A stretch of 57,503 nucleotides of DNA from contig CAZFQP010000005.1 of NCBI GenBank assembly GCA_964520505.1, positions 1 through 57,503 on the forward strand, written 5' to 3'. Shown one piece after another: positions 28,254 through 34,937 of the stretch. Under the pieces are notes generated by a model. The model worked only from the letters and a program-made list of their open reading frames with translations. It made no database searches and was not told the origin of the DNA. Numbering within the stretch: the first letter of the stretch is position 1; every line of letters begins with the position of its first letter. Origin of the DNA: an uncultured Candidatus Saccharibacteria bacterium (GTDB lineage Bacteria; Patescibacteriota; Doudnabacteria; UBA920). The translations under genes were made by a program, and so were the position numbers.

Positions 28254-29237
28254 ATGGAAGAAACAGAAATAAAAATCCAGGTAAAAAATACAGTTTTAAA
28301 AGTACTACCATTTTGGTTGATTTTTTTAATTTTGGTCACCGCGGTCCAAATCGGAGCTTTTCAGTTAATTAAAGCTCCTGTGTCGAGCAAAGTGACAAAC
28401 CAAACTCCGGTTCCTCAGGTTTTGGGGGCTAGTATTTCGCTTCGAGGCGAAGCGCCATCAACAGTTTCCGAAATCCCAAAGCTCAAAGAACCTGATTTAA
28501 GCAATATTTCTGCGAAAAGTTTTTTAGCATTTGACCTCGACAGTGGCCGAGAATACATTAAAGAAAATGAAAACGGAAAGTTAAGCATTGCCAGTCTTAC
28601 CAAACTACTTACTGCCCTAGTAGCTTATAAAACGGCCGATTTAAATGCCAACTTTACGATATCGGCCAAAAGCAACATAGACACCAAACCGGTTTTGGGG
28701 CTAGTTGCTGGTGACAGCGTAAAAGCAGTGGACGTTTTAAACTCAATGATCGTCGGCTCTTGTAATGATGCCGCTTTAGCTCTGGCACAGTACGTTTCTG
28801 ACTCAGAAAATAAAAGTTTTATTACTTTAATGAACGACACCGCTAAGGAAATTGGAATGAATAATAGTAATTTTTCCAACCCGATGGGTTTTGATAGCCG
28901 AAATAATTATTCCACGGCCGAGGACTTAAAAATTCTTATTACCGAAACCGAAAAATTAGCAATTTTTAATAATTTAGGGCGTCGCACCAGCTACAGCTTT
29001 TCCGGAAGCAATCAGAAAACCTATACCGCTTATGCCACCAATAAACTTATTAAAAACCATCCCGACATTCAAGCTATAAAAACCGGCTTCACTGAGAGTG
29101 CGGGCGGAGCCATGGCTACAAAAATAACCCTAGGGTCGCGAGACATAGCAATTTTAGTGTTGAACAGTCAAAATCGGGAAGGGGATACGCTAAAAATAAA
29201 GCAGCAGTTAGAAAATAGCTTTAATTGGCAGCCTTAA
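28254..29237 (+). CDS. serine-type D-Ala-D-Ala carboxypeptidase (peptidase S11, PBP5-like)
   Basis: SxxK (SIASLTKLL), SxN (SCND) and KTG (KTGFT) motifs, with an N-terminal TM anchor. Confidence 0.85.
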   Translation: MEETEIKIQVKNTVLKVLPFWLIFLILVTAVQIGAFQLIKAPVSSKVTNQTPVPQVLGASISLRGEAPSTVSEIPKLKEPDLSNISAKSFLAFDLDSGREYIKENENGKLSIASLTKLLTALVAYKTADLNANFTISAKSNIDTKPVLGLVAGDSVKAVDVLNSMIVGSCNDAALALAQYVSDSENKSFITLMNDTAKEIGMNNSNFSNPMGFDSRNNYSTAEDLKILITETEKLAIFNNLGRRTSYSFSGSNQKTYTAYATNKLIKNHPDIQAIKTGFTESAGGAMATKITLGSRDIAILVLNSQNREGDTLKIKQQLENSFNWQP

Positions 29238-29245
29238 TATATCAT

Positions 29246-29266
29246 CCGTCCGCCTCAGGCGGACGG
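29246..29266 (+). terminator. hairpin after the DD-carboxypeptidase gene (no T-tract)
   Basis: CCGTCCGCC-TCA-GGCGGACGG. Confidence 0.4.
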
Positions 29267-29578
29267 GATCCATACCTTAACAATATTTATTCTCAGAATC
29301 GGATATCCCCATAACTCATGTTGTTTAAGAATAACGTGACAAATTAACACCTCCATTTCTATATGTGTCTGCGCAATCTTGCGTTTCTGAAAGAAATTGA
29401 AATAATTCATTCAGTTAAATCCCTTATTTTCGATGTATTAGCTACTATATAAAAGTCATAAATGCTATTATTTGATTTACAAATAAACCCTTGCTTTTGC
29501 GAGGGTTTTCTGCTAATATAAAGGGTCTTTTAGCAATTTTGGCTTTTCCTGAAAGCTAAGAGATGATGGAAGGAGAAT

Positions 29579-30067
29579 ATGTTTATGACTGTTGCGGAGA
29601 GGGTTAAGAAAGCGATTGCCGAATACTACCGGATTGACGTTTCGGAAGTGACCGACGACCGCAAGCTGAACGATCACATGTTGTTGGTCTTCATCACTAT
29701 CAAACTCGACATTCCTTCGAGTGGCACGGTCGGGGAAGAACAGACCGTGGGGCAGCTCATTGCCCAGTTCGAGAAGATGGCCAAACTTCATGACTCGGGA
29801 ACCTATGCTGAAACACCCGTGATTAATTCCGTACGCGATGCTGTTGCCGTGGCAACTGCCAAGCACAACGGAATTAAGGTTGAAGAAATCACCGACAACA
29901 CGACTGTGTTGTTTGCTGATTACCAAGCAAGTAATGCTTTCAGCAACCACATGTGCTATCTCCTCGGCTACACCTTAGGCTTGAATTGTCGGGAGAAAAA
30001 TCTCAGCGTTAAAAAAATCACTGAGATGTTCGAGAGTTTGCGAGAAGCCGCACGGCACGGCATATAA
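29579..30067 (+). CDS. hypothetical protein with two degenerate ACP-like repeats (GC-rich island gene 1)
   Basis: GGAAGGAG Shine-Dalgarno sequence. ATG at 29585 has better spacing than 29579. VAERVKKAIAEYYRIDVSEVTDD resembles the acyl-carrier-protein N-terminal helix, and a second similar segment is present (GIKVEEITDNT). No DSL phosphopantetheine serine motif is present. Confidence 0.6.
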   Translation: MFMTVAERVKKAIAEYYRIDVSEVTDDRKLNDHMLLVFITIKLDIPSSGTVGEEQTVGQLIAQFEKMAKLHDSGTYAETPVINSVRDAVAVATAKHNGIKVEEITDNTTVLFADYQASNAFSNHMCYLLGYTLGLNCREKNLSVKKITEMFESLREAARHGI

Positions 30068-30129
30068 AAATGCAACAGCCGCCAGCTTGAGCGGAAATCA
30101 AACAGTCAATGAACAAAGGAGGCTAAATT

Positions 30130-30618
30130 ATGTGTGGTTCGTTTATGCCACCGCCCTCAGCGAAACAAGGTGAATCCAAGTTTGGATTTACAGCCAGCCA
30201 GCGGGTCAAGGTCATTAAAGACACCCATTTTCAAGACTGGCACGGCCACGTGCGGGCGTTCCGTGACGTTATTGTCGCCGTCGACCTCGACGAGCCGCCA
30301 CCCGGTCATCAAAAGAATGGCCAGTGGTTTCTGCCGGAGAACCTTCGAAAGGCACCAATCAACATCGTCGTCAAGTACGGAAATCACTACGTCGCTCAAT
30401 TCCATCTCGAGCGGCACCCGTTCAAACGTCAAGAACTTGCACTAATGTCGGAGACCGATGATCAGGACTGGGGTTACAACGGCATTTACCGTATCTCCCA
30501 TGTCGGGCCGCCGCCGGCAATTGCTAGTCAGTTCCAGTGGGAAGTCCAACTGGAGAAGATTCGCGACTTGCTCGAAAGCGACCAAGCCATCCTCGTCGAC
30601 TACTATCCACACACGTAA
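30130..30618 (+). CDS. hypothetical protein (GC-rich island gene 2)
   Basis: AAGGAGG Shine-Dalgarno sequence 7 nt upstream, 162 aa, no recognised motif. This is the longest of several overlapping frames in this GC-rich stretch. Confidence 0.55.
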   Translation: MCGSFMPPPSAKQGESKFGFTASQRVKVIKDTHFQDWHGHVRAFRDVIVAVDLDEPPPGHQKNGQWFLPENLRKAPINIVVKYGNHYVAQFHLERHPFKRQELALMSETDDQDWGYNGIYRISHVGPPPAIASQFQWEVQLEKIRDLLESDQAILVDYYPHT

Positions 30619-30619
30619 C

Positions 30620-30666
30620 CGAAGCGCCGCCCTGCAAACCGCAGGCTCCGGCGCTTCTTCTTTTTG
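30620..30666 (+). terminator. rho-independent terminator ending the GC-rich island
   Basis: GAAGCGCCG...(CCTGC-AAACC-GCAGG)...CGGCGCTTC is followed by TTCTTTTTGT. Confidence 0.7.
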
Positions 30667-30758
30667 TATAATTTTGTGTACGAACTTACTTTAAAACCTA
30701 TCCAATAAAATTTAAGATTAGGGCATCTGTTAATTCGCAACCTTAAATACAGAGTTTT

Positions 30759-30794
30759 AAAACCTTTTGCTAAATTTCCCAAAAGGTTTTTTTT
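30759..30794 (+). terminator. terminator-like hairpin abutting the mraY ORF
   Basis: AAAACCTTTTG-CTAAATTTCC-CAAAAGGTTTT followed by TTTT, ending 1 nt before ATG 30795. Confidence 0.55.
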
Positions 30795-31883
30795 ATGGTA
30801 AAATTAATTCAGATTCTAGATATAATTTTCCTGGATTTTTTCTTTATGGTTGATCAAATTTTAACCAAAATCTTCACTTTAACTTCCTTCGGTTTTGCTT
30901 TTGCCCTGCTGGCCACTCCTGTTCTCACAAAATTTTTATACCACAATAAACTTGGCAAAAATATTCGCAACGACGGTACCACCCCGCTATTTTCCGAAAT
31001 GCATAAAGAAAAGGCCGGCACGCCGACAATGGGAGGGATTTTAGTCTGGGGCACACTAGCCGCCTTAATGCTTGCTTTCTGGCTTCTGGGCTCAATAATG
31101 CACATTGAATTTTTTGCGAACTTAAACTTCTTTTCACGCAAAGAAACCCTGCTTCCATTAGGCGCACTACTTGGCGCAGCCATTGTAGGATTAGTTGACG
31201 ACTGGCTGGACATCCGCCATATGGGTCACAAAGGACGAGGTTTACGATTTCGTTTTAAATTTATTATTTACGCCATTGTGGCGGCCATTGGCGCCTGGTG
31301 GTTCTTTTTTAAGCTCGGGTTCTCCACTGTTCATATTCCATTTATTGGCAGTGTAGATTTTGGTTTGTGGTTTATTCCATTTTTTATTTTGGCGGTTGTT
31401 GGTGTAAGTTTTGCCGTTAACGAAACAGATGGCCTAGACGGTCTGGCTGGAGGCACCTTAATGATAGCTTTTTTTGCCTACGAAATTATTGCCTTCGCCC
31501 AAGGGAAATATGACCTGGCTGCCTTTATCGCGGTAATTTTTGGCGCTCTGTTGGCCTTTTTATGGTTTAACGTTTACCCTGCCAGATTTTTTATGGGTGA
31601 CACGGGCTCAATGGGGCTTGGGGTACTTTTAGCTATTGTGGCTTTTTTAACTAACTCGGTTTTTATTTTGTTCTTTATTGGTTTTATTTTTATGATTGAG
31701 GCGGTTTCTGTATTCCTGCAACTATTTTGGAAAAAAGTTTTCAAACGAAAATTGTTTTTATCCGCGCCGATTCACCATCATTTCCAAGCGCTCGGCTGGC
31801 CGGAAACAAAAGTCACAATGCGATTCTGGATAATTGCCGGAGTGATGAGCATTATTGGAGTTATAATTTATTTTTTGGGATAA
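30795..31883 (+). CDS. mraY: phospho-N-acetylmuramoyl-pentapeptide transferase
   Basis: GKNIRNDGTTPLFSEMHKEKAGTPTMGG, NETDGLDGLA and FMGDTGSMGLG. The true start may be ATG 30846, because a terminator hairpin ends at 30794 and a TATAAT lies at 30821-30826. Confidence 0.9.
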   Translation: MVKLIQILDIIFLDFFFMVDQILTKIFTLTSFGFAFALLATPVLTKFLYHNKLGKNIRNDGTTPLFSEMHKEKAGTPTMGGILVWGTLAALMLAFWLLGSIMHIEFFANLNFFSRKETLLPLGALLGAAIVGLVDDWLDIRHMGHKGRGLRFRFKFIIYAIVAAIGAWWFFFKLGFSTVHIPFIGSVDFGLWFIPFFILAVVGVSFAVNETDGLDGLAGGTLMIAFFAYEIIAFAQGKYDLAAFIAVIFGALLAFLWFNVYPARFFMGDTGSMGLGVLLAIVAFLTNSVFILFFIGFIFMIEAVSVFLQLFWKKVFKRKLFLSAPIHHHFQALGWPETKVTMRFWIIAGVMSIIGVIIYFLG

Positions 31884-31905
31884 CTTAAAAAGCTAACACA
31901 AAAAT

Positions 31906-33471
31906 ATGTACTCATTACTTATTAAAAATGCCAAAGTTATAGACGGCACCGGGCGGACCGGAGAAATTGCAGATGTTGCCGTGCAAGATGACGAAATTGT
32001 TGCCGTTGCACCAAACATTACCACCGAGGCACAAACTGTAATCGATGCAGCCGGCAAAATTCTAGTTCCCGGTTTTATTGACTTGCAAAATCATAGTGAC
32101 AGCTACTGGCAAATTTTTGACAACCCCTCTTTAGACAGCATGGTCAGCCAGGGCTATACCACAATTCTAGTCGGTAATTGCGGTGCCAGCTTAGCTCCAT
32201 TGCTTACCAACGATGCCCTGTTGTCTATGCAAAAATGGCACAGTCTGGAGGCTGCCAATATCAACTGGCGCAGCTTTTCAGAATATATGGAAGAGCTGGA
32301 AAAAAATCACTATGGCTGCAATATTGCCAGCTTGGTTGGTTATTCAACTTTGCGCCGCGCGGTTGTGGGCGACCAAATTCGTTCATTAGAAAAAAATGAA
32401 CTGGATTCGTTAAAAAAAGTTTTGGAACAAAGTTTAAAAGCCGGAGCATTTGGGCTTTCCAATGGTCTTTCTTATGCCCACGAAATTATTATTTCTGAAC
32501 TGGAACTATTTGAACTTGCCAAAATTGTTAAAAAATCAGACGGACTATTTTCTATCCACTTAAGAAGTGAGGGGGCAGAAATTATTGAAGCCGTAGACGA
32601 AGCTTTAGATATCGCAAAATCTACCGAGGTTAATCTAAAAATTTCCCATTTAAAATTGCGTAACGAGGCCAATTGGCCCAAATTTGACGAGTTAGTCAGC
32701 ATAATTGATACAGCCTACCACCGAGGTATAAATGTCCACTTTGACCTTTACCCTTATGACACTGTCTGGCAAGCGTTATACAGCTATTTGCCAAAATGGG
32801 CAATAGAAGGCGGACGGGCAATTTTACTTAAACACTTTGAAGACCCGGTACAAAAAAATAAAATTTTAATGTACCTCAACAATTCAGGTATAAAATTTTC
32901 CACCATGCAAATAGCTTCCACGGCTAGCAAGCTGAGTTTTACAGGAAAAACAATCGGGCAAGTTGCTAAAAATTTAGAGGTTTCATCCGAGCAAGCAGTT
33001 TTGCATATAATTGCCAATGGTGGCAGTGAGGTTTTGGTGTTTGAAAAAAATCTTAATGAGGATCATGTAAATAAATTATTGTTGCATCCGCTATCCTTTA
33101 TTGGCACGGACGGAGCCGGATTTTCAAAAAATATTAAAGACCGCCTGGTTCACCCTCGGTGTTTTGGCAGTGCGCCAAAATTTTTAAATTTCGCCCAAAA
33201 ATCCGGACAAATTACTTTAGAACAAGCAATAAAAAAACTTACTTCTGCGCCGGCCAAAAAACTTGGACTATACAAACGCGGCGAAATTAAAGTCGGCAAT
33301 TTTGCGGATTTGGTTATAATGGACGCGGATAAAATTGCCGACAAATCAACTTACACTAACCCCGGCCAGTTTAGCGAAGGAATCGAGCAAGTTTTTGTTA
33401 ACGGAAATATTGTTATGCAAGGAGGGCAAGCAACCGGAACTCTGTCCGGACGAGCTTTAAGAAAAAATTAA
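31906..33471 (+). CDS. N-acyl-D-amino-acid deacylase (D-aminoacylase) family amidohydrolase
   Basis: LIKNAKVIDGTG...ADVAVQDDEIVAV...IDAAGKILVPGFIDLQNHSD and the overall length fit Amidohydro_3 D-aminoacylases. The usual HxH is QNH here. Confidence 0.75.
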   Translation: MYSLLIKNAKVIDGTGRTGEIADVAVQDDEIVAVAPNITTEAQTVIDAAGKILVPGFIDLQNHSDSYWQIFDNPSLDSMVSQGYTTILVGNCGASLAPLLTNDALLSMQKWHSLEAANINWRSFSEYMEELEKNHYGCNIASLVGYSTLRRAVVGDQIRSLEKNELDSLKKVLEQSLKAGAFGLSNGLSYAHEIIISELELFELAKIVKKSDGLFSIHLRSEGAEIIEAVDEALDIAKSTEVNLKISHLKLRNEANWPKFDELVSIIDTAYHRGINVHFDLYPYDTVWQALYSYLPKWAIEGGRAILLKHFEDPVQKNKILMYLNNSGIKFSTMQIASTASKLSFTGKTIGQVAKNLEVSSEQAVLHIIANGGSEVLVFEKNLNEDHVNKLLLHPLSFIGTDGAGFSKNIKDRLVHPRCFGSAPKFLNFAQKSGQITLEQAIKKLTSAPAKKLGLYKRGEIKVGNFADLVIMDADKIADKSTYTNPGQFSEGIEQVFVNGNIVMQGGQATGTLSGRALRKN

Positions 33472-34937
33472 TGCCAACATCCGAATTAACAAATAAATTA
33501 GTGGCCATTTTAGGCTTTGGCCAGGAAGGCCAAAGCACTGCAGAATATTTACTGAAAGCCGGAATTCGTCCGGTTTTATTTGACCAGCGTCCCTGGGGAG
33601 ATTGGGCAAAAGAAGATCAGGAAAAAATTAAAAACTTAGGCGTTAACTTTATTTTTGGCCCGGATGCTTTTTTAGAGTTAAAAGGTTTTGACGTGGCTTT
33701 TAGAAGTCCGGGCATTAAATTGTCTGATCCTCATTTGCAGGCAAGGATAAAAGATAAAAAATCAAAACTAGTTATTACCAGTCAGACCAAATGGTTTTTT
33801 GACCACTGCCCGGCCAAAATTATTGGCGTCACCGGAACCAAAGGCAAAGGTACCACAGCTTCATTAATATATAGAATCCTTTCCTCGTCATTGCGAGTGC
33901 ATCCGAAGCAATCTCAAACAATAAAGGGATTGTCACACCCCTCAGATACATTCGAGGTTCGCAATGACAAACGTTCAGTCTACTTAACCGGGAATATCGG
34001 CAAAATCCAACCATTCGAAATTTTAGATACCCTGTCGGAACTCGACTGGGTAGTTTACGAGCTCTCCAGTTTTCAATTACAAGATTTAACCAAGAGCCCG
34101 CAAATTGGCGTCGTATTAATGGTTACAAAGGAACATTTAGATTACCACAAAAATTTAAACGAATACCATTCGGCTAAAAATGCAATTACCAAATTCCAGA
34201 CAGTGGACGATACTGCGGTAATCAACGCCGACTATCCGGCTTCCAAGAAAATTGGGAACTTAGGTAAAGGCCAAAAGATTTACGTAAGCCGTTTTCAACC
34301 GGTAAAGCCCGGGTGTTTTGTTAAACAAGGGGAAATATTTTACTGTGCCCCAAAAAGCAAACCGGAAAAAATTCTGCAGCTAAGTAAATTAAAATTGCTC
34401 GGGGAGCATAATTGGGAAAATGTTTGCGCCGCCGTAGCCGCAGCTAAAGCTGCCGGCTGCGGACAAAAAGCCATTGTCAAAGCGTTAACCACTTTTTCCG
34501 GCTTACCCAACCGGCTGGAGTTAGTGGCCGAAAAAAACGGAATAAAATTTTATAATGATTCATTTTCAACAACGCCGGAGACCACTATTGCCGCAGTTGA
34601 GGCCATAAAGGAGCCTAAAATTTTAATTCTTGGGGGGTCTTCCAAAAAGTCAGATTTTAAGGCTCTAGCCACCACTATAAATAATGATAAAAATATTCGT
34701 GGATTAATTCTAATTGGCCAAGAAGCGTTGAATATCAAAAATGCTTTAGGAAAAAAGAGCTCGATTCCAATACAAGAAGGAGCCACCAATATGACTGAAA
34801 TATTTAAGCAGATTAAAACCTTTGCCAGACCAGGGGACACAGTTTTGTTAAGCCCCGCCTGCGCTTCATTCGGGATGTTTAAAAATTATAATGATCGAGG
34901 CTCGCAATTCGCTCAAGCCGCAAAAAACTGGAACTAA
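33471..34937 (+). CDS. murD: UDP-N-acetylmuramoylalanine--D-glutamate ligase, with an in-frame repeat insertion
   Basis: P-loop GVTGTKGKGTT, LTGNIG, SSFQL, and a C-terminal domain LPNRLE...FYNDSFSTTPE. The start overlaps the previous stop (TAATG). Confidence 0.9.
   Translation: MPTSELTNKLVAILGFGQEGQSTAEYLLKAGIRPVLFDQRPWGDWAKEDQEKIKNLGVNFIFGPDAFLELKGFDVAFRSPGIKLSDPHLQARIKDKKSKLVITSQTKWFFDHCPAKIIGVTGTKGKGTTASLIYRILSSSLRVHPKQSQTIKGLSHPSDTFEVRNDKRSVYLTGNIGKIQPFEILDTLSELDWVVYELSSFQLQDLTKSPQIGVVLMVTKEHLDYHKNLNEYHSAKNAITKFQTVDDTAVINADYPASKKIGNLGKGQKIYVSRFQPVKPGCFVKQGEIFYCAPKSKPEKILQLSKLKLLGEHNWENVCAAVAAAKAAGCGQKAIVKALTTFSGLPNRLELVAEKNGIKFYNDSFSTTPETTIAAVEAIKEPKILILGGSSKKSDFKALATTINNDKNIRGLILIGQEALNIKNALGKKSSIPIQEGATNMTEIFKQIKTFARPGDTVLLSPACASFGMFKNYNDRGSQFAQAAKNWN
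33887..33968. mobile_element. ~82-bp palindromic (MITE/RPE-like) element inserted in frame in murD
   Basis: Terminal inverted repeats GTCATTGCGAG ... TTCGCAATGAC. The first 29 nt match 1624-1652 at 28 of 29 positions. It encodes about 27 extra residues (SLRVHPKQSQTIKGLSHPSDTFEVRNDK) directly after the P-loop helix. Confidence 0.65.

Follow-up and report, generated by a model that had tools for sequence, protein, structure and literature searches.

An uncultured Candidatus Saccharibacteria bacterium (GTDB lineage Bacteria; Patescibacteriota; Doudnabacteria; UBA920; assembly GCA_964520505.1) carries about 1.5 kb of additional DNA between dac, its DD-carboxypeptidase gene, and mraY. This segment is probably a horizontally acquired, self-contained accessory cassette, placed directly before the native dac-mraY spacer (29238-30732). 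We analysed the whole 57,503 nt of contig CAZFQP010000005.1 in which it lies (the window; positions are those of its forward strand). The host genome is a metagenome bin of about 1.09 Mb in 54 contigs and is 94% complete. The cassette, its two genes and the adjoining spacer are as follows.

29238-30732, no strand assigned: inserted segment of about 1.5 kb, which follows the dac stop codon and precedes the native dac-mraY spacer
29585-30067, + strand: gene 1, predicted tandem pseudo-acyl carrier protein of 160 aa (162 aa from 29579), in which His33 replaces the carrier Ser
30130-30618, + strand: gene 2, 162 aa in two domains, a small SH3/CAP-Gly-like barrel (N domain, residues ~14-77) and a six-stranded β domain (C domain, residues ~78-160)
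30733-30794, + strand: native dac-mraY spacer with a conserved palindrome (30759-30790), recognised by homology to relative G016 and by its inverted repeat

The cassette interrupts a conserved gene pair

We located Dac and MraY homologues in 40 relatives, drawn from the genus, family and order of the host. About 36 of these have the two genes side by side and co-oriented, with 0-500 nt between them (64-85 nt in the closest relatives); the distance here is 1557 nt. Because the adjacency is order-wide, the additional DNA is an insertion. Its left boundary was taken as the dac stop codon and its right boundary was inferred by eye. In G016 the sequence TTTGCAACC opens the spacer directly past the dac stop, and its counterpart TTCGCAACC begins at 30733 here; the insert therefore spans about 29238-30732. 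Consistent with this boundary, the last ~60 nt 5' of mraY are homologous to the short dac-mraY spacer of G016, with 85-93% identity by BLAST over 30755-30794. The palindrome at 30759-30790 (AAAACCTTTTGC…GCAAAAGGTTTT), directly 5' of the mraY start and conserved with G016, is probably the original dac terminator, as read from its sequence. The mraY start itself, ATGGTAAAAT, resembles an extended -10 box.

The flanking block, which comprises genes for a VirD4-like ATPase and a thioredoxin as well as dac and mraY, is conserved core. The VirD4-like ATPase gene, 2 kb upstream, was considered as a link to a conjugative element. This was ruled out: throughout the genus the gene keeps 86-93% identity and its synteny with dac, which makes the neighbourhood core chromosome, not a conjugative element. 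Repeats flanking the insert, direct or inverted, occur at chance level only, and an 18-nt inverted pair with 78% identity (29332/30728) overlaps the native spacer. Another species of the genus, G007, has a different insertion of ~1.3 kb at the same junction (L009, G007:C18:8800-10400), with two minus-strand genes. One product is secreted-looking and rich in Ala/Gln (250 aa), the other lipoprotein-like (94 aa). The dac-mraY junction seems to tolerate cargo repeatedly.

The cassette genes have foreign codon usage

The window averages 40.0% G+C (standard deviation 3.5%, 1040-nt windows), and its coding island (29579-30618) reaches 50.7%. This is the highest 1040-nt value of the window, about 3 standard deviations above the mean and reached by 0.18% of windows. 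Across the genome, 1-kb windows have 41.8±3.9% G+C, and 2% of them have at least 50%. An earlier note on this DNA had described a strongly G+C-enriched island on the strength of four 60-nt hand counts (28/60, 41/60, 23/60 and 21/60); all four were exact on recount, and the full sliding-window calculation bears out the local elevation.

The excess of G+C sits at synonymous sites. Gene 1 has a G+C content at third codon positions (GC3) of 0.60 and gene 2 of 0.63; the genome has 0.43±0.08 (847 open reading frames, ORFs), dac 0.39 and mraY 0.42. The codon usage of the island is foreign and unlike that of the host's highly expressed genes. Its deviation from the genome closely follows that of a second G+C-rich islet, on contig C6 of the bin (r = 0.92), and only weakly that of the highly expressed genes (EF-Tu, EF-G and ribosomal-protein genes; r = 0.41), whose GC3 is somewhat raised (0.43-0.58). 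The codons CTC, GTC, ATC, TTC, CGG, TCG and GAG are enriched several-fold in the island over both bulk and highly expressed genes.

Codon usage of the island type is shared by about 35 ORFs of 120 aa or more, which add up to ~24 kb or ~2% of the genome. Several are embedded in long contigs (C1, C2, C3, C4, C9, C11 and C13). Many encode secreted-looking proteins without known function, and some lie on short contigs that are possibly mis-binned.

Predicted expression signals

The non-coding parts of the cassette hold the following elements.

29246-29266, no strand assigned: perfect hairpin resembling repetitive extragenic palindromic (REP) elements, 10-bp stem, CCGTCCGCCT-C-AGGCGGACGG (-18.8 kcal/mol, z = -4.6)
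29267-29484, no strand assigned: A+T-rich non-coding spacer, ~33% G+C, with no ORF, Rfam or relative match
29485-29508, + strand: stem-loop AAACCCTTGC-TTTT-GCGAGGGTTT, a terminator-like insulator by its form (-15.3 kcal/mol, z = -5.8)
29491-29519, + strand: predicted sigma-70-type promoter, TTGCTT, 17 nt, TG-c-TAATAT (extended -10), read from the sequence
29505-29531, + strand: promoter/5'-leader element of 27 nt, identical to C6:1851-1877 (blastn of the whole genome, 27/27, E = 2e-8)
30621-30668, + strand: intrinsic terminator of the cassette, a G+C-rich hairpin at 30621-30657 (-26.4 kcal/mol, z = -4.4) followed by the T-run UUCUUCUUUUU

The stem-loop at 29485-29508 stands directly upstream of the predicted promoter and overlaps it, including the -35 region; a weaker hairpin occupies the corresponding place of the C6 islet. 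The 27-nt element covers the promoter spacer, the -10 box and the first bases predicted to be transcribed, and its C6 copy precedes the second G+C-rich islet. Nineteen of its 27 nt also precede a tRNA gene on contig C1, where TTTTCTGCTAATATAAAG of the promoter lies 10 nt 5' of the gene. This 19-nt identity to a tRNA-gene promoter marks the cassette promoter as host-type and probably strong. The motif TTTCTGnTAnnAT occurs 13 times in the genome, and a similar layout of stem-loop and promoter precedes one further foreign-type gene (C3:22919).

Gene 1 has a Shine-Dalgarno sequence, GGAAGGAG, at 29568-29575, which is 9 nt 5' of the ATG at 29585 and would be 3 nt from a start at 29579. All 10 gene 1 homologues start with MTT(A)EKV, and gene 1 therefore most likely begins at the second ATG (29585) and encodes 160 aa. 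The Shine-Dalgarno sequence of gene 2 (AAGGAGG, 30116-30122) is 7 nt 5' of its ATG. The stem-loop and extended -10 promoter (TTGCTT, 17 nt, TGcTAATAT) would drive one bicistronic mRNA with two strong ribosome-binding sites, ending at the terminator (30621-30668). With a promoter and a terminator of its own, the unit would neither depend on nor read into the cell-wall genes.

The earlier note had listed two ORFs of 162 codons, each behind a strong Shine-Dalgarno sequence, a G+C-rich terminator and an A+T-rich non-coding leader. The two ORFs and their Shine-Dalgarno sequences were confirmed, folding of 30621-30657 and the T-run agree with a terminator, and the leader has 32% G+C and no ORF of note. 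Its A+T-rich spacer (29267-29484) has no + strand ORF of at least 30 aa, and a 51-aa minus-strand ORF has no family match. Rfam and tRNA scans of the leader gave no match at threshold and one sub-threshold match, to the hairpin only, and no homologue of the leader was found in 25 relatives. The hairpin at 29246-29266 lies directly 3' of the dac stop, 15-18-nt copies of it are present on contigs C1, C3 and C16, and a similar hairpin stands in the dac-mraY spacer of G003, a member of the genus. It probably belongs to a family of REP-like palindromes.

Gene 1 encodes a duplicated acyl carrier protein fold without the carrier serine

The AlphaFold2 model of gene 1 consists of two similar helical domains (mean predicted local distance difference test score, pLDDT, 75). 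Nearly all Foldseek matches in the PDB were acyl carrier proteins (ACPs; probability 0.8-0.98, template modelling (TM) score 0.6-0.7 per domain, weak E-values of 0.05-2), and the best was the doublet ACP 5y08 of the prodigiosin pathway. Like the doublet ACPs, gene 1 has its domains in tandem, each half being predicted to form the ACP helical bundle. Each domain aligned with single ACPs at a TM score of 0.65-0.70 and a root-mean-square deviation of 2-3 Å. A profile of the gene 1 family also matched mostly ACPs in the PDB, below threshold (best E 0.05), and its N-terminal helix is similar to theirs in sequence (…AEKVrkaVAEylgIe..qVTDD…). The two halves are homologous by hhalign (probability 94.7%, E 6e-8). 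BLASTP between them gave no match, and the duplication is visible only by profile comparison.

Gene 1 differs from ACPs at the site that defines a carrier. The Ser of the DSL motif is replaced in repeat 1 by His33, which together with Met34 (D-H-M) is invariant in the 11 family sequences and stands at the position of the phosphopantetheine-bearing Ser. In repeat 2, hhalign aligned DHM with N-H-M (123-125); this position varies among homologues and holds no conserved Ser. The PP-binding family (PF00550) gave no match at E ≤10 in any of the 11 members. Furthermore, the genome has no PF00550 protein, that is, no canonical ACP, and no biosynthetic genes adjoin gene 1. No phosphopantetheinyl transferase (PPTase) of the AcpS type (PF01648) was found in this 94%-complete genome (controls positive in 10 of 14 genomes; the Sfp type was not separately searched). 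Given an invariant His in place of Ser, in a genome with neither an ACP nor an AcpS-type PPTase, gene 1 has the predicted fold of an ACP and is not a carrier protein. The reading of the earlier note, two degenerate ACP-like repeats that lack the DSL serine, is thus upheld by the fold matches, the hhalign comparison and the alignment. The likeliest role for gene 1 is that of an adaptor or decoy that binds other proteins. Our literature search turned up no relevant work on serine-less ACP-like proteins.

Gene 2 combines two independent modules

No Pfam, NCBIfam, PHROGs or PADLOC match worth noting was obtained for either protein at E ≤1; for gene 2, the earlier note had likewise recognised no motif. 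A full HMMER scan of 1.84 billion representatives recovered 29 relatives of gene 2 and resolved it into two independent modules, since the N and C domains each also exist as stand-alone proteins of 70-90 aa. The C domain was modelled confidently (pLDDT ~80-90). Foldseek of gene 2 against the PDB returned nothing significant. In BFVD the C domain resembles uncharacterised phage proteins of 60-70 aa (probability 0.9-1.0, TM 0.6-0.75), with sub-significant E-values of 0.1-0.3.

The N domain has the pattern …GESKFGF-x3-RV-x-V…WHGHVR-x-F…VAVDLDEPP-x-GH-xx-NGQWF…. It aligns with CAP-Gly/SH3-like barrels (PF01302) over the core (G-f-x-v-G-x-R-V…G-x-v-r-f…vAV-x-LDEP…G…F), and it matches other SH3-like families (NdhS, KOW, RimP-SH3) weakly. 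CAP-Gly is essentially a eukaryotic domain. All these matches are below threshold (E at least 0.1; best E for CAP-Gly 0.11, in 3 of 19 members), the fold is not confidently modelled, and the GKNDG signature of CAP-Gly reads PP-x-GH-xx-NGQW in gene 2.

Some features of the wider family were also recorded. A paralogue 56% identical to gene 2 lies at C6:2294-2776. In the metagenomic protein P0014 a winged-helix-like C terminus (EutK_C, MarR_2, FeoC; E 0.016-0.04) follows the N domain in place of the β domain, which hints that the N domain works with nucleic-acid-binding modules. Many N termini of the family read M-C-x-G… (MCGSF, MCGPC, MCVGV, MCMGG, MCFGV) and continue into a Pro-rich stretch, and full-length and C-domain members end in …(V/G)-x-Y-D. 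Both cassette proteins have negative mean hydropathy and no long hydrophobic stretch, and therefore look soluble and cytoplasmic.

Both families are rare and their partners vary

Both families are extremely rare and sporadic, and all homologues with a known source come from Patescibacteria-like contigs. The gene 1 family occurs in one of 60 relatives (G003), in none of 400 genomes sampled across the phylum and in 10 clusters among 5.8 billion proteins; it is single-copy in its own genome, and its relatives elsewhere are on metagenome contigs only. Among the 460 genomes no gene 2 relative was found outside its own genome. Elsewhere gene 2 is present in one NCBI metagenome-assembled genome (MAG), labelled 'Patescibacteria group bacterium', and its N domain on six JGI/ENA metagenome contigs; a scan of GTDB genome contigs returned only this same MAG.

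Genes 1 and 2 are adjacent in their own genome only. What lies downstream of the gene 1 homologues varies: a DksA/TraR zinc-finger gene in G003, an unrelated gene of 106 or 82 aa, or, 175 nt away, a MerR-type gene; one homologue has no co-oriented small partner (L032). Upstream of the gene 2 homologues lie unrelated genes of 125 and 209 aa, and genes for the N domain also stand alone between housekeeping genes (L016, L020, L022). A comparison of the gene 2 partners with gene 1 and with one another showed no relationship. Different partners elsewhere, or none at all, argue against an obligate two-component module.

Related cassettes in other genomes

In four other assemblies, gene 1 homologues have a related promoter/leader (…TGGAC, 17 nt, TGGTATAAT-AAAAAGTCTTTTTAGGAGGA…), and the gene 1 cassettes elsewhere are G+C-rich islets in flanks of lower G+C. 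Cassettes from other metagenomes share the island codon usage at r = 0.67-0.84, compared with r = 0.29-0.54 for their own host genes. On contig L032, whose G+C is 52%, the gene 1 homologue does not stand out in composition, a hint that the home lineage may lie among Patescibacteria of higher G+C. A conserved palindrome, TAAAAAGTCTTTTTA (7+1+7), directly follows the -10 box of gene 1 cassettes and is itself followed by TAGGAGGA (L006 5900-5970, L031, L033, L034); it could be an operator or a leader element.

The second islet of the host genome (C6:1500-5900, L005) is larger and opens with the identical 27-nt promoter/leader. Besides the gene 2 paralogue, which has 160 aa and a GC3 of 0.72, it contains an unrelated gene of 125 aa, a convergent orphan of 379 aa and other orphans, and a GIY-YIG gene lies just upstream.

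Origin of the cassette

Together, the interrupted gene pair, the foreign codons and the sporadic families point to acquisition. We think it more likely that the DNA came from another Patescibacterium, or from its mobile gene pool, than from a distant phylum of high G+C, because the promoter is of the host's extended -10 type and the sources of homologues are Patescibacteria-like. The earlier note had proposed a recent acquisition from a higher-G+C donor; of this, acquisition with a higher-G+C signature stands, the donor is likelier to be Patescibacterial, and the age of the event is not datable, the Dac of the nearest species representative being only 58% identical.

Several points weigh against an acquired, self-contained unit. 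No integrase, transposase, tRNA target or flanking direct repeat was found within or adjoining 29238-30732, as the earlier note had stated for integrases and repeats and as repeat and gene scans of the site bear out. Neither protein has relatives in IMG/VR, GenBank phages or PLSDB plasmids, so no vehicle is in evidence. The promoter, the transcription start and co-transcription are predicted from sequence alone, and a consensus promoter scan did not call the promoter at 29491-29519. The ~250-nt A+T-rich part (29267-29484) has no match that would account for it. The gene 2 N domain is poorly modelled (pLDDT <50). The stem-loop/promoter with its specific leader has only two copies in the genome, and shuffling of the kind described for promoter-early stem-loop (PeSL) cassettes is an analogy. 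The constant high G+C of members that are ~50% identical could also reflect selection instead of repeated recent transfer.

These two families and other orphan genes probably circulate among Patescibacteria as G+C-rich cassettes (GC3 0.6-0.7) that bring a conserved promoter/leader with them, a chromosomal counterpart of phage morons, and they may be exchanged by recombination at the stem-loop/promoter element, as PeSL cassettes are. With low confidence, we assign the cassette an accessory role in conflict or host interaction and not in metabolism. For both proteins we favour, again with low confidence, non-enzymatic binding or adaptor roles.

A broader version of this account is possible, if doubtful. 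Patescibacteria might share a pool of promoter-bearing, G+C-rich orphan cassettes whose codon usage is independent of the host, shuffled by recombination at the stem-loop/promoter/leader and carried by natural transformation or by unrecognised phages of the Candidate Phyla Radiation (CPR), with both gene families as cargo.

We regard as unlikely the alternative that the cassette is what remains, as 'moron' or cargo, of a mobile element such as a Patescibacteria phage, which was lost after delivering it or delivered this piece only. The predicted promoter, the terminator, the deviant G+C and the insertion all resemble those of a moron, which would in addition reside in a phage. The uniform codon usage of cassettes across hosts suggests a common reservoir, and the C domain of gene 2 is like small phage proteins in BFVD. 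Those BFVD matches are below significance, however, PHROGs gave no match, IMG/VR and GenBank phages held no sequence match, and the flanks are core genes with no phage genes near.

We consider improbable a toxin-antitoxin (TA) or toxin-immunity module in which one product, gene 1 as the ACP-fold adaptor or else gene 2, would neutralise the other and the promoter would be autoregulated. Two small adjacent genes between one predicted promoter and one terminator fit such a module, as do the 'mix and match' of partners that is typical of TA and immunity modules, the 7+1+7 palindrome (TAAAAAGTCTTTTTA) at the predicted start site of gene 1 cassettes, the second gene 2 copy in the genome and one gene 1 homologue in an island with Zeta-toxin and HNH genes. 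The pairing of genes 1 and 2 is unique to this genome, however, gene 1 is found without a co-oriented partner (L032), and the gene 2 N domain occurs as a lone gene (L016, L020, L022). PADLOC, Pfam and NCBIfam gave no toxin or antitoxin match, PHROGs was also blank, and a DNA-binding antitoxin fold is missing. The genes do not overlap, 62 nt lie between them, and each has a strong ribosome-binding site of its own. The two-component module that the earlier note had suggested, toxin/immunity-like or an adaptor with its partner, is thus disfavoured by a pairing found only once and by searches that returned no toxin, antitoxin or defence family in PADLOC or Pfam.

Two further alternatives are very hard to sustain. 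The first is an assembly or binning artefact that joined a fragment of a higher-G+C organism into the contig. The genome is indeed a metagenome bin of 54 contigs with many other G+C-rich ORFs on short contigs. Evidence against a chimera comes nevertheless from an independently built Logan contig (L008, run SRR12487046), which matches window 28476-33914 without a difference (5439 nt, 100% identity) and runs across both junctions; furthermore, the junctions have no repeat longer than 18 nt, the promoter is host-type, and G+C-rich islets within low-G+C flanks were found again in other assemblies. The second is that the genes are native and owe their high GC3, strong ribosome-binding sites and tRNA-type promoter to translational selection for high expression. 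In its favour, GC3 is raised in EF-Tu (0.54), EF-G (0.53) and rpsL (0.58) over the mean of 0.43, and a tRNA gene has the same promoter over 19 nt. The island GC3 of 0.60-0.63 is above that of the translation genes, however, and of the relatives searched only one has either gene. High-expression codon adaptation was ruled out by codon-usage scores that lie within the bulk (63rd and 86th percentile) and below every gene of the reference set, and by different preferred codons (island versus highly expressed genes: Leu CTC 0.37 vs 0.04, Arg CGG 0.36 vs 0.02, Ser TCG 0.28 vs 0.04, Glu GAG 0.46 vs 0.14).

Significance and comparison with known systems

The acquired cassette is a clear and fairly ordinary gene acquisition in a CPR bacterium with a tiny genome. 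Small horizontally acquired islets are common; this one is well documented and well delimited in a streamlined genome, with the site empty in dozens of relatives, and it brings its own predicted expression signals into a cell-wall cluster. The codon usage and promoter/leader that it has in common with cassettes from unrelated metagenomes point to a shared mobile gene pool in Patescibacteria. Moderate interest is added by that possible pool and by the gene 1 family, a conserved, duplicated ACP fold without the carrier Ser in organisms without an ACP system, which on the structural models would be a repurposed fold.

A phage moron is recognised by carrying its own promoter and terminator, by its deviant G+C and by lying between two genes that relatives have side by side (Juhala/Hendrix; PMC3594210). 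The cassette likewise appears to be an independent unit, with a well supported terminator and a predicted promoter. It stands between genes adjacent in relatives, has deviant G+C and carries cargo unrelated to the flanking operon. It differs from morons in having two genes, in lying in a cell-wall block of a bacterial core chromosome and not in a phage or prophage, and in having no known host benefit.

PeSL cassettes shuffle orphan genes in T4-type phages (Arbiol et al. 2010, PMC2839356). As in these, the stem-loop of the cassette adjoins a predicted strong sigma-70-type promoter before orphan genes, and an element of 27/27 nt is common to two loci with differing downstream genes, as recombination would give. 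In contrast to the phage cassettes, the promoter is chromosomal, and the stem-loop lies ahead of its -35 region and extends into it; only two copies have the specific leader, too few to define a family; and the host is a CPR bacterium and not a phage.

Compared with classical genomic islands, the cassette is much smaller and has no integrase or tRNA target. Horizontal gene transfer is common in Patescibacteria and takes place mostly between Patescibacteria (PMC12455944). The cassette resembles the islets and transferred genes described there in being compositionally deviant and sporadic within a streamlined CPR genome, and its likely exchange partners are other Patescibacteria. It differs from them in that it carries a promoter/leader of its own, common to related cassettes.

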